Sequence record: LR597645
Origin: Escherichia phage Fraca
Direction: 5' to 3' (one strand)
DNA length: 43,664 nucleotides
The notes below the pieces were generated by a model that was not told the DNA's origin, made no database searches, and worked only from the letters and a program-made list of their open reading frames with translations. How positions within the stretch are numbered: the first letter of the stretch is position 1; each line of letters opens with the position of its first letter. Positions 27,385 through 36,381 of the stretch are shown here, piece by piece. The position numbers and the translations under genes are program-made.

Positions 27385-27813
27385 TTACTTATTGAATTCG
27401 ATCTTGTCCGCTTTAGAGCTAATAATGCTCTGCATTTCATCCAGTTTTTGGGAGACGAGACTTAAAACCCCAATTGAGTTTGATTCTGTTGGTATATCAT
27501 CCATTGAATTATAAACGGCAAGCTTACAATCGCCGATATCACAAGCCCAAGAGTTAAGTTGATTAGCTAGCGCTGTTGGCGACTCTAATTTTTGTCCCCG
27601 TTGACATTCAGCTCCAGCATGGATGCTAAGTTGCTCCACATACTCGTAAGCAGTTTGGCTGGTCTTTAGCATAGAACGAATCAGGCAGGCAATTGTGTTA
27701 TCGGCTTCCGGTGAAAATTCATTTATGCGGTAAATAACCTCCAGTAACGAAGCATTCTCAGTGATTTCCGCAGCAATATCATTTAGCATTTCGATTGGAT
27801 TTTTCATTAACAT
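27385..27813 (-). CDS. Hypothetical acidic protein in AT-rich island
   Basis: 142 aa; overlaps the upstream 66-aa gene by 7 nt; AT-rich codon usage unlike the structural genes. Confidence 0.5.
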   Translation of the reverse strand: MLMKNPIEMLNDIAAEITENASLLEVIYRINEFSPEADNTIACLIRSMLKTSQTAYEYVEQLSIHAGAECQRGQKLESPTALANQLNSWACDIGDCKLAVYNSMDDIPTESNSIGVLSLVSQKLDEMQSIISSKADKIEFNK

Positions 27814-28007
27814 TTATCCCATTCATTTTTATGGGCCTCGTTTGCATAGTTGCAGACAAACGCGAGAAGAATGTCGCTAATTTCTCTATACTCGTCATCA
27901 TCAACCGCCGATAACAAACTAGCTGCTTCAACAATCAAGGACATATTCTTGAAAGCATCACAAGGATGGATGGACAACCCCTTAAATGTTTTTATCTTCT
28001 GAGACAT
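27807..28007 (-). CDS. Hypothetical small protein, first gene downstream of the putative PL
   Basis: 66 aa ORF starting about 50 bp left of the OL-like operator cluster. Confidence 0.45.
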   Translation of the reverse strand: MSQKIKTFKGLSIHPCDAFKNMSLIVEAASLLSAVDDDEYREISDILLAFVCNYANEAHKNEWDKC

Positions 28008-28029
28008 TTTCTATCACCTCTGAGTTGAT

Positions 28030-28140
28030 TTGATAGAATGATGATAGAGCCTGCTATTGGTATTTGCAATAGATATTGCTATTTAAAATGCTATTGATTT
28101 TTATGTCTTTGATATCAAAAATAAAAAAAATCTATTGCTG
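28030..28140. promoter_or_regulatory. Putative OL/PL operator-promoter region
   Basis: Multiple CTATTG / CAATAG half-sites (28054-28096, 28132-28138) and palindrome TTTGATATCAAA, mirroring the motifs right of cI. Confidence 0.55.
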
Positions 28141-28426
28141 ATGTGTTTGTAACAGCACGGTAGAAATAATTGTCCTTTAGACAGTGATCTACCAATACAT
28201 GAGATATCGGGAGTTGGAGCATCGAAGCTTGAGAATTAAATGGACTGTGAAAGGGCGAGATACTCGCAGAGAGCAAGAGGGTAGGGTAGGAGTTCCGATC
28301 AGGTAGTCGCCCGCCTGGTTGACTGGTGGTTACTATTGTGGGGGCACATAGAAAACCCGACGCACTGGCCGGGTTAAGAATCCATTCAGCTTGTTATGCG
28401 TAAGTTTTTATTTTAATTTGCATTAT

Positions 28427-29134
28427 TCACCCATGCTTCCTGTAGGTCTGCGGCATGCTGCCGATCACCTTTCCGAAGATGAAAATTTTGTTCATCTCTT
28501 CCTTCTCGATTGGTTCCCATGGTAGATAGGTATGGTTGTCAGAGATAACTAAGAGTTTGTCTTTCATCTTTTGTAAGCGCTTAACATGCGATGTGTCATC
28601 GTAGATGAACGCGTATATACCGTCGCCGTCGAAATGCTGAACGCTGATATCGACGAAGAGTAAGTCCCCTGGCTCTATGGTGCCAGACATGCTATCACCT
28701 CGAACGTTGATGATGCGTATCTGCTCCTGTTTCCGGCCATTAAACATTTGACGGGCATCTTCAACTGAGTATTCCACGGAGCGCAGCACCTCCACGAATT
28801 CGCTGTTAATTATGCCCGGGCCAGCACTTACGGTAAGGTCGAGTACGTCAACTCTGAAGATGGCTGGATCTTTTTTGTTATTCATCGGTGGGGGTGGTTG
28901 TTGGTCGTCACCCCTCATTGGTCCAGTACCGTTTGATAGCCACTCCGAACGAACACCCAGGGCATTAGCTATTTCAACGATTTTGGTTGTGCCTCTAGCA
29001 TTTCCAGATGTTATTCGCCATATGGTTGGTTGTGCCATATTCGCCGCTTTGGCTAACTGACCCTGGCTCATGCCCATCTCATGCATTGCGTAGTTAAGTC
29101 TGTCAGCTAGCGTCTTAAGTGTTCTCTCTTGCAT
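28427..29134 (-). CDS. cI: CI-like repressor (HTH plus S24 LexA-like peptidase domain)
   Basis: ATG at 29134 with GGAGG RBS; N-terminal HTH; C-terminal GDSM...K catalytic dyad motif. Confidence 0.85.
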   Translation of the reverse strand: MQERTLKTLADRLNYAMHEMGMSQGQLAKAANMAQPTIWRITSGNARGTTKIVEIANALGVRSEWLSNGTGPMRGDDQQPPPPMNNKKDPAIFRVDVLDLTVSAGPGIINSEFVEVLRSVEYSVEDARQMFNGRKQEQIRIINVRGDSMSGTIEPGDLLFVDISVQHFDGDGIYAFIYDDTSHVKRLQKMKDKLLVISDNHTYLPWEPIEKEEMNKIFIFGKVIGSMPQTYRKHG

Positions 29135-29179
29135 ATTTATAGCCTCCGCTATCACATTCTAGTCAAGCATGATAAACAA

Positions 29180-29229
29180 GTCTATTGCTCATTCCAATAG
29201 CAATTGCTATTATAAGTTCGATAGCAACT
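29180..29229. promoter_or_regulatory. Putative OR/PRM/PR operator region between cI and cro
   Basis: Overlapping palindromes CTATTGCTCATTCCAATAG (29182-29200), AATAGCAATTGCTATT (29196-29211) and TTGCTAT-N10-ATAGCAA (29204-29227). Confidence 0.6.
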
Positions 29230-29248
29230 GAACGGGATTAGCAAAAAA

Positions 29249-29467
29249 ATGAAATCAGCAATTGAAAGAGCTATTGATGCTGCTGGAGGAGTAAATGCTC
29301 TAGCTCGCGCTATAGGTGTAAAACAACCCTCTGTCTCTCGCTGGAGAAAGGTTGGTGTTGTTGGGGTGGAACATGTGCCTGATGTTGCGGCCTTTACTGG
29401 GATTCCCGCCCATGAACTGAGACCTGACAAACCAAAATTATTCCCTCACCCGGGCAATGAGGTGTGA
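29249..29467 (+). CDS. cro: Cro-like HTH regulator
   Basis: 72 aa divergent from cI across the operator cluster; HTH region GGVNALARAIGVKQPSVSRW. Confidence 0.7.
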   Translation: MKSAIERAIDAAGGVNALARAIGVKQPSVSRWRKVGVVGVEHVPDVAAFTGIPAHELRPDKPKLFPHPGNEV

Positions 29468-29468
29468 C

Positions 29469-29678
29469 ATGTCACACCCAATCACTACCGAAAACCAAAT
29501 TAAGCCATTGGATATCGATTATCGCGATCCGCGCGGTGTGATTGTGCATGTCACCGGCTGGAATCGGGATAAACAGCAGGTGTATTTCACCAGACAGAAT
29601 TATCCGCATGAATGCATGCAGCCTGTCTGGAAGTTCCAACAATATTTTACGAAGGTCTCGGAGGCGCAAAATGCGTGA
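29469..29678 (+). CDS. Hypothetical protein (cII position)
   Basis: 69 aa; ATG at 29469 with GAGGTG RBS, 2 nt after the cro stop. Confidence 0.45.
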   Translation: MSHPITTENQIKPLDIDYRDPRGVIVHVTGWNRDKQQVYFTRQNYPHECMQPVWKFQQYFTKVSEAQNA

Positions 29679-35521: not shown

Positions 35522-36063
35522 ATCCGTCTCCGTTAATTGCAGCAATAAAAGCCTGGTGGAAGCCGTTTTTAGTATTGATTGTTGTGGTCGCCGCGTTTAT
35601 CGCTGGCAATGTCTGGAGTAACCGGGCATGGGAAAAAAAGTGGGCAGACCGTGATAGTGCCGAGTCCTCGCAACAAGTCAACGCGCAGACCGCCGCCAGA
35701 ATGATAGAGCAAGGGCGAATTATTGCCCGTGATGAGGCCGTTAAAGATGCTCAAGAGAAAGCAGCTGCCGCGCGTGATGTTTCTGCCCGTTTGGCTGGCA
35801 CTGTTAGTCAGCTGCAGCAACAGGCAAGAAAACTCGCCACCCGCCTGGACGCCGCAAAGCACACCGCAGATCTTGCCGCTGCCGTCAGAGGCAAAACAGC
35901 CGGAGCCAACGCCACAATGCTCGCCGACATGCTCGGAGGTCTTGCAGCAGAAGCTAAATATTATGCTGAACGATCTGACGAAAGCTATCGAGCAGGAATG
36001 ACCTGTCAGCGTATTTATGACTCGGTGAGAGAGTCAAACAACCAATCTGGAGCCTCGCAATAG
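35518..36063 (+). CDS. Rz-like i-spanin
   Basis: 181 aa; N-terminal TM segment then Ala/Gln-rich coiled coil; GTG start overlapping the endolysin stop. Confidence 0.7.
35777..36001 (+). CDS. Rz1-like o-spanin lipoprotein embedded in the +1 frame of Rz
   Basis: ATG at 35777 encodes [14 protein letters not shown] (lipobox) followed by a Pro-rich sequence, wholly inside the Rz gene. Confidence 0.65.
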
Positions 36064-36074
36064 TGGGGCTTTTT
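36052..36074 (+). terminator. Terminator hairpin, copy 1 of a duplicated element
   Basis: GCCTCGCAATAGTGGGGC (7-bp stem with wobble pairs, AAUA loop) followed by T5. Confidence 0.55.
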
Positions 36075-36092
36075 ACTAACCGAGGAAACCAA

Positions 36093-36317
36093 ATGTCCGT
36101 TCGCGCTAAATTCCGCTGCCACTTCATTCAGAAAGCAGAAGACGATTCACACCGCACAATCTACATGAGTCCTGTAACTGCAGATACCACCGAAAACAAG
36201 TCGTGGTCAAAGTATACACCTGGCGGCCAGCTGCAGATGGTCATCTCGAACCCTGCAGCGTTCGAACTCTTCGAGCAAGGCAAAGAATACTTCATCGACA
36301 TACAACCGGCGAAGTAG
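36093..36317 (+). CDS. Hypothetical protein (moron bracketed by duplicated terminators)
   Basis: ATG at 36093 with GAGGAAACC RBS; 74 aa. Confidence 0.5.
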   Translation: MSVRAKFRCHFIQKAEDDSHRTIYMSPVTADTTENKSWSKYTPGGQLQMVISNPAAFELFEQGKEYFIDIQPAK

Positions 36318-36331
36318 TAAAGAAATTTCCA

Positions 36332-36354
36332 GCCTCGCAATAGCGGGGCTTTTT
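36332..36354 (+). terminator. Terminator hairpin, copy 2 of the duplicated element
   Basis: GCCTCGCAATAGCGGGGC followed by T5; near-identical to 36052-36074. Confidence 0.6.
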
Positions 36355-36381
36355 ATTACCAGAAGAAGCAGGAGAAGAAGC

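Follow-up and report, generated by a model that had tools for sequence, protein, structure and literature searches.

The repressor gene of Escherichia phage Fraca (sequence record LR597645) is flanked on both sides by repeated copies of the hexamer CTATTG and its complement CAATAG, and the question raised by this locus is whether these half-sites make up the operators of the phage repressor, CI, and what the operator unit would be. The locus lies at 28030–29229 of a stretch of 43,664 nucleotides, which was analysed as a whole and is called the window here; all positions are those of the window. A first-pass annotation had described it as an immunity region with operator half-sites common to both sides of cI. 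Judged from its sequence, it is an ordinary lambda-type immunity region, one more lambdoid switch with a site type common to phage BTP1 and many enterobacterial phages. We consider it probable that the locus serves a lambdoid temperate phage as its immunity region, where CI binds the 16-bp operators proposed here, OR1 to OR3 between cI and the cro-like gene and OL1 and OL2 to the left of cI. The regulatory genes and predicted operators are listed below.

28427–29134, minus strand: cI-type repressor gene encoding 235 aa; start codon ATG at 29134, preceded at 8 nt by GGAGG
29249–29467, plus strand: cro-like gene, 72 aa; divergent from cI and 114 bp away from it
29196–29211: predicted OR1, AATAGCAATTGCTATT; perfect 16-bp palindrome lying between the −35 and −10 of the rightward early promoter (PR) and overlapping the −10
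29171–29186: predicted OR2, GATAAACAAGTCTATT (AATAGACTTGTTTATC in cI orientation); weak, 2 mismatches; 25 bp from OR1; overlaps the −35 of PR and the −35 of PRM(b), a candidate repressor-maintenance promoter (PRM)
29138–29153: predicted OR3, TATAGCCTCCGCTATC (GATAGCGGAGGCTATA in cI orientation); extends over both the Shine-Dalgarno sequence of cI and the predicted start of PRM
28043–28058: predicted OL1, GATAGAGCCTGCTATT; 1 mismatch; between the −35 and −10 of the leftward early promoter (PL)
28068–28083: predicted OL2, AATAGATATTGCTATT; 0 mismatches; 25 bp from OL1, its promoter-proximal end overlapping the −35 of PL by 2 bp

The cI product was assigned by Pfam to Peptidase_S24 (1.7e-17) and to the helix-turn-helix (HTH) family HTH_3 (1.2e-5), both above the cut-offs, and to PHROG 4, transcriptional repressor (1e-62). 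Its N-terminal domain was aligned by phmmer with the 434 repressor (E 6e-6 over 62 residues, 9–70 on 2–63), which is the closest solved homologue of the DNA-binding domain. CI carries Ala104-Gly105, Ser148 (in GDSM) and Lys185 (in VKRL), which we take, from established knowledge of the S24 family, to be the LexA-type cleavage and catalytic residues. The Cro-like protein belongs to a different class; it was matched to Pfam YdaS_toxin (4.5e-12) and P22_Cro (2.6e-5), to PHROG 35 and, in the PDB, to the Xylella prophage Cro 3bd1/XPH1 (2e-7).

The half-sites are clustered around cI well beyond chance. CTATTG occurs 21 times in the 43.6-kb window, counting either strand, which is about as many as expected overall, and 8 of these 21 copies lie inside 28030–29280, or 2.9% of the window (binomial P = 7e-8). 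The cluster claimed to the left of cI in the first-pass annotation was recovered, with copies of CTATTG/CAATAG at 28054, 28067, 28091 and 28132. When AATAG-N6-CTATT was searched with at most one mismatch, four matches were obtained in the window, all of them at 28043–29275 (0.63 expected; none of 100 shuffles reached four). The enrichment was retested by shuffling the AT-rich intergenic segments alone, and the signal holds: the OL segment has five pentamer half-sites against 0.7 expected (none in 2000 intergenic shuffles), and the OR segment has three 16-mers with at most two mismatches against 0.16 expected (1 in 2000).

The sites are also conserved together with the part of CI that would read them. 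Scans with the 81-aa CI N-terminal domain gave 108 loci (80 viral contigs and 28 species-representative genomes), from which 99 loci in five repressor groups, with 64–100% N-terminal identity, were left after redundancy had been removed; at least 575 viral-contig stretches encode a relative of this domain. In 98 of the 99 non-redundant loci the 160 bp upstream of cI contain a 16-mer with at most one mismatch, at −77, −86 or −89 relative to cI in most groups. Downstream of cI, a pair of 16-mers spaced by 25 bp is present in 72 of the 81 non-redundant loci of groups A–C, and nearly all matches (again with at most one mismatch) in the loci, each about 5 kb long, fall at OR or OL positions. All five groups retain the recognition helix AQPTIWR(I/L)TSGNA(R/K)G, with Q for N in the most distant one. 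Distant homologues with altered helices have altered palindromes, namely AATAC...GTATT in L106 and L107 and GTTAC...GTAAC in L108. The earlier description of the locus as an immunity region is thus borne out by a CI-like repressor, a divergent Cro-like gene and half-sites that flank cI, lie over promoter-like elements and are conserved with the recognition helix in about 100 loci.

Phylogenetic footprints were obtained by aligning 18 distinct OR and 27 distinct OL sequences. The half-sites (AATAGCA and CTATT) and the −10 boxes are invariant, and the six central base pairs, the 9-bp spacers between operators and the leaders vary. In the 18 OR sequences AATAGCAA and CTATT of OR1 are invariant, except that the first base is A or G, and the centre varies. 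AATAGAC and TTAT of OR2 are invariant in the OR alignment, and the equivalent +25 position in the BTP1/4A7 group carries AATAGCAAAACGTGTT. For OR3, ATAGCGGAGGCTATA is invariant in groups A and B, and equivalents stand directly upstream of cI in the BTP1/4A7 group (AATACGCAAGCGTATA) and in the Symbiopectobacterium group (AATAGCGAATGCTATA). The OL alignment gave ATAGCA...CTAT(C/T)AT as invariant for OL1 and the core ATAG-N7-CTATT for OL2. A consensus of AATAGCAA|TTGCTATT, with the invariant core (A)ATAG-N6-CTAT(T), is accordingly proposed for the predicted repressor sites. The expectation that such a consensus would define the immunity specificity of this phage has to be narrowed; a consensus was obtained, with the 16-mer as its unit, but it is not unique to the phage, being common to a family that includes BTP1, ST104, 4A7 and ASU11.

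At the cro-side outer position of OR1, most of L002–L015 and phage SaltyDalty (L001) have G instead of A, and among the near-identical relatives the perfect OR1 palindrome is limited to the window and L016. As this base is also position 4 of the PR −10, the −10 reads TATCAT in those relatives and TATTAT in the window.

The following promoters were predicted around the sites.

28041–28069, minus strand: predicted PL, TTGCAA-17-TATCAT; start near 28034; called by the promoter scan and conserved; reads leftward into 27807–28007 and beyond
29185–29213, plus strand: predicted PR, TTGCTC-17-TATTAT; start near 29220; transcribes cro; read from the sequence
29156–29184, minus strand: PRM candidate (b), TAGACT-17-TAGAAT; start near 29149–29150, leader of about 15 nt
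29169–29197, minus strand: alternative PRM candidate (a), TTGGAA-17-TATCAT; predicted start 29162; would place OR1 at −41.5, an activating position

The promoter-operator blocks of PR and PL are mirror images of each other (33-nt inverted repeat I1, 76%), and the PR −10 is TATTAT or TATCAT in all relatives. Within both promoters the half-sites supply parts of the hexamers, CTATTG giving the TTG of the −35 and CTAT|TAT the start of the −10. OR1 and OL1 are placed between the promoter hexamers, and OR2 and OL2 each overlap the neighbouring −35 by 2 bp at the promoter-proximal end. Because the operators overlap the hexamers of PR and PL, their occupation should exclude RNA polymerase. In the mechanism proposed, CI, with its 434-type HTH and LexA-like S24 domains, would bind as dimers to the 16-bp operators, with 25 bp between the centres of neighbouring sites; PR and PL would be occluded once repressor occupies OR1/OR2 and OL1/OL2, and RecA-stimulated cleavage at Ala104-Gly105 would lift the repression.

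The cI gene itself is probably transcribed from TAGACT-17-TAGAAT, PRM(b). This candidate is kept in groups A and B as TAGAC(T/A)-17-TA(G/A/C)AAT and reads TAGACA-17-TACAAT in the 75% group; candidate (a) is not conserved in the 75% group, which reads TTCCAC...TATAGA. With its −35 in OR2 and its start and Shine-Dalgarno sequence in OR3, PRM(b) predicts negative autoregulation and a promoter that is active without CI. Such a promoter fits the absence of a cII homologue, none having been found by Pfam and PHROG among the neighbouring genes examined; to our knowledge the cII pathway, with its establishment promoter (PRE), is not universal among lambdoid phages. A further candidate, TTGACT-19-TATAAA as a leaderless PRM, was rejected, since relatives do not conserve TTGACT and its geometry is wrong.

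Half-sites that belong to none of the five operators were found at three positions.

29220–29227: orphan half-site GATAGCAA, at about +1 to +8 of PR, with no recognisable partner half
28089–28096: extra half-site TGCTATTG with no partner half; the near end of OL2 is 12 bp from its start
28131–28138: extra half-site TCTATTGC, weak, within a possible OL3 at 28121–28138

Most relatives in group A keep the first of these as TTGCTAT(C/T)GA (TAGCTATTGA in L026) within a leader that otherwise diverges, and it is weaker in group B (TTTGCTATCAA and TTTTCTATCAA). For the half-site at 28089, AATAGC is kept in the 83–100% group and not in the 75% group. An OL3 at 28121–28138 was considered and rejected; a 16-mer with one mismatch is present there only in some near-identical relatives (AATAGATTTTTTTATT), the sequence of the window is longer by one T, and the more distant groups lack the site. 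One further 16-mer with a single mismatch, AATTGAAAGAGCTATT, lies within cro (29260–29275), where it spans codons 4–9 (Ala-Ile-Glu-Arg-Ala-Ile), 64 bp from the centre of OR1. Relatives carry synonymous changes within its half-sites (ATT to ATC), and the 75% group has GCAATAGAT at the same codons, where GCA ATA GAT gives CAATAG on the other strand. This match is most likely a by-product of coding, although it could be an auxiliary or fourth site.

Whether the 16-mer is the right unit depends on how the half-sites are paired. Two parses were compared, CTATTG-N7-CAATAG (type A, 19 bp) and AATAG-N6-CTATT (type B, 16 bp), in which the half-sites face in opposite ways. A 25-bp spacing of type B sites necessarily produces CTATT-N9-AATAG, and hence type A, wherever two of them adjoin, and the window fits this exactly. 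The three overlapping palindromes reported to the right of cI in the first-pass annotation are all present, and the perfect 16-mer among them was located at 29196–29211 as AATAGCAATTGCTATT; the other two, CTATTGCTCATTCCAATAG (29182–29200) and GCTATTATAAGTTCGATAGC (29206–29225), are on this parse junctions between neighbouring operators. The half-sites in that list were correct, but the third OR operator at 29138–29153, over the cI ribosome-binding site, was missing from it. It is improbable that the 19-mer is the unit and the 16-mer its by-product. Its exact matches in the window are confined to 29182–29200 and 28054–28072, these contain the −35 boxes of PR and PL, and the 19-mer is found in OR of groups A–D. 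Its geometry, however, is not conserved: under changed spacing the 16-mer is kept and the 19-mer lost. In the Enterobacter-type group the OL pair of 16-mers is 45 bp apart with no 19-mer in OL, and in the Symbiopectobacterium group OR holds three full 16-mers, spaced by 19 and 35 bp, and 19-mers are almost absent. Within the window the third junction is spaced 18 instead of 19, OR3 is a 16-mer without a 19-mer partner, and the 13 bp between half-site centres would be a misfit for a 434-like dimer, as judged from the 434 alignment and established knowledge. The 19-mer was rejected as the operator unit on the spacing in the Enterobacter-type and Symbiopectobacterium groups. Given the comparative geometry, the co-conservation with the recognition helix and the 434-like 4-6-4 layout, the 16-mer AATAG-N6-CTATT is with good confidence the predicted operator unit.

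The motif could also be no repressor site at all and consist of duplicated promoter sequence (TTG from the −35, TAT from the −10), with CI binding elsewhere. Half-sites that overlap both hexamers of PR and of PL, in two promoters that are mirror copies, would suit this explanation, yet bases beyond the hexamers (AATAGCA and CTATT) are invariant, OR3 has the motif without these promoter elements, and the motif tracks the recognition helix across phages of differing promoter layout. A repeat search of the two intergenic regions gave no other repeated palindrome. We find a promoter-only origin scarcely credible. Little weight is given, too, to the proposal that the sites, or the orphan half-sites and 19-mers, serve mainly the Cro-like protein or some other factor of phage or host. 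Cro here is a different, P22/Xfaso1-type HTH protein, and it might account for the conserved half-sites at 29220 and 28089, which are otherwise unexplained; against this, the motif co-varies with the cI N-terminal domain, in a comparison that leaves the cro genes of groups C–E outside. In characterised lambdoid switches Cro and CI share operators, so a role for Cro would complement binding by CI and not exclude it.

Several points weigh against CI operators and promoters as laid out here. OR2 and OR3 each have two mismatches in the 10 outer positions, and the conserved orphan half-sites at 29220, 28089 and 28131 are not explained by a model with one dimer per 16-mer. The PR −35 has only 3 of 6 consensus matches, and PR was not called by the scan. 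Cooperative filling of OR1 and OR2 would silence PRM(b) along with PR, an awkward design, and the alternative PRM(a) does exist in this phage. In the literature searched, no binding data were found for CI or any member of its family. Binding of CI to the 16-mers nevertheless stays the preferred reading.

A bolder combination of these elements would have a constitutive, purely negatively autoregulated cI promoter that needs no cII, with the orphan half-sites as auxiliary contacts, a wiring unlike that of lambda, 434 or P22. Separately, identity of the recognition helix could make the phage cross-immune with BTP1- and 4A7-type phages. Both proposals together are put forward tentatively, and we regard them as rather doubtful; if true, cross-immunity with Salmonella BTP1-type and E. 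coli 4A7-type phages would amount to an immunity 'supergroup' across genera.

Two further features belong to the region between cI and the leftward operon.

28354–28375, minus strand: intrinsic terminator after cI, AACCCGGCCAGTGCGTCGGGTT then TTCTATG
27807–28007, minus strand: first gene of the leftward (PL) operon, 66 aa; PHROG 4587 (1e-28), with no assigned function

The gap between cI and OL is 288 bp long (28139–28426) and holds the cI terminator. Between this terminator and OL, about 215 bp of GC-richer DNA (28139–28353) are found only in the closest relatives. A search of the gap for an RNA gene gave neither an Rfam match (E up to 1) nor a tRNA, the fold z-score was only −1.6, and no convincing small open reading frame is present. 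In this slot BTP1 has bstA and lambda has rexAB, examples of the accessory genes found there in other lambdoid phages. Among L038–L081, which are otherwise similar phages of 4A7/BTP1 type, the distance from the cI start to the OL pair ranges from about 1.4 to 2.7 kb, which points to different cargo inserted between cI and OL. The SaltyDalty record annotates a hypothetical coding sequence of 55 aa that overlaps OL and is probably spurious.

To the right, cro is followed in order by genes for a DUF4222 protein, a DnaD/O-like initiator and a primase-helicase. Taken as a whole, the window represents a mosaic lambdoid siphovirus with mEp235/HK97-like structural genes and a SaltyDalty-like early region. 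Complete E. coli genomes were searched with 27800–29500 as the query, and 36 of 5,426 were matched, at 76–84% identity and in the C-terminal (S24) part of cI only; the HTH-plus-operator module was detected in none of the 5,426 at megablast sensitivity. Since the C-terminal part alone matches E. coli prophages, the repressor gene appears to be mosaic at the domain boundary.

Away from the immunity region, two near-identical terminator-like hairpins, AGCCTCGCAATAG(T/C)GGGGCTTTTT, were noted at 36050–36076 and 36331–36357 around an open reading frame of about 74 aa (36094–36318), which looks like a self-contained accessory-gene cassette. CAATAG in the loops of these hairpins is unrelated to the operators.

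The consensus with the core ATAG-N6-CTAT would cover the predicted sites of a repressor family that is widespread in enterobacterial prophages and includes the clinically relevant Salmonella ST313 prophage BTP1. It should allow PR, PL and PRM to be annotated correctly, homo- and hetero-immunity to be predicted among phages of this family, and virulent or immunity-insensitive mutants to be designed, and it offers an additional orthogonal repressor/operator pair.

Compared with lambda, the locus has the same divergent cI and cro with a three-site OR between them, OL before the leftward early operon, predicted operators over the PR and PL core promoters at a spacing of about 24–25 bp, an S24 self-cleavage domain in the repressor, and variable cargo or a gap between cI and OL. 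It differs in that the predicted operators are 16 bp long and of another sequence, with only two clear sites in OL, and in the leader of cI, whose strong Shine-Dalgarno sequence falls within OR3. Since OR2 contains the −35 of the best-conserved PRM, activation from OR2 in the manner of lambda is not evident, and no cII homologue was found next to cro.

The operator of phage 434 is 14 bp long, ACAA-N6-TTGT. The sites proposed here, with the core ATAG-N6-CTAT, share its 4-6-4 layout with conserved outer base pairs and a variable central 6 bp, and both repressors have Gln at the start of the recognition helix. The half-site is ATAG instead of ACAA, the helix reads QPTIWRIT instead of QQSIEQLE, and the operator of the window has one further conserved base on each side (A...T).

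No published description of an operator type with AATAGCAAT/TTGCTATT was found, also in searches aimed at BTP1 operators and at the mEp immunity groups, within an incomplete coverage of the literature. Closer relatives of the DNA-binding domain, by N-terminal identity, are those of SaltyDalty (100%), of E. coli 4A7, Lambda_4C10, Perceval and PhiR30_1 (78%), of Klebsiella ST11-VIM1phi8.2 (77%), of ASU11 (75%) and of Salmonella BTP1, ST104, ST160 and SE1 (73%). SaltyDalty (PP925825.1) is 98.3% identical over 27800–29500, the first 81 aa of its cI product are identical and all half-sites are the same. Its OR1, AATAGCAATTGCTATC (PR −10 TATCAT), falls short of a perfect palindrome, its operator centres and spacers carry a few changes, and its record has no operators annotated.

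BTP1, ST104, ST160 and SE1, together with 4A7, Lambda_4C10 and Perceval and with ASU11, share a near-identical recognition helix and AATA(G/C)-N6-(C/G)TATT operators. In the BTP1/4A7 type and ASU11, as in the window, OR1 and OR2 are 25 bp apart, as are OL1 and OL2. In transcriptomic data for BTP1 the cI-bstA operon is transcribed from a single start (PMC7067206); the same paper describes the gap between cI and N as a hotspot for accessory genes and does not describe operators (PMC7067206). The BTP1/4A7 group departs from the window in having OR3 25 bp from OR2 with a TTGACC −35 between the two, a lambda-like layout, a cI without a Shine-Dalgarno sequence and 1–2 kb of cargo between cI and OL (bstA in BTP1), and the BTP1/ST104/4A7 type further differs from the phage of the window in helix 2 and at operator position 5.

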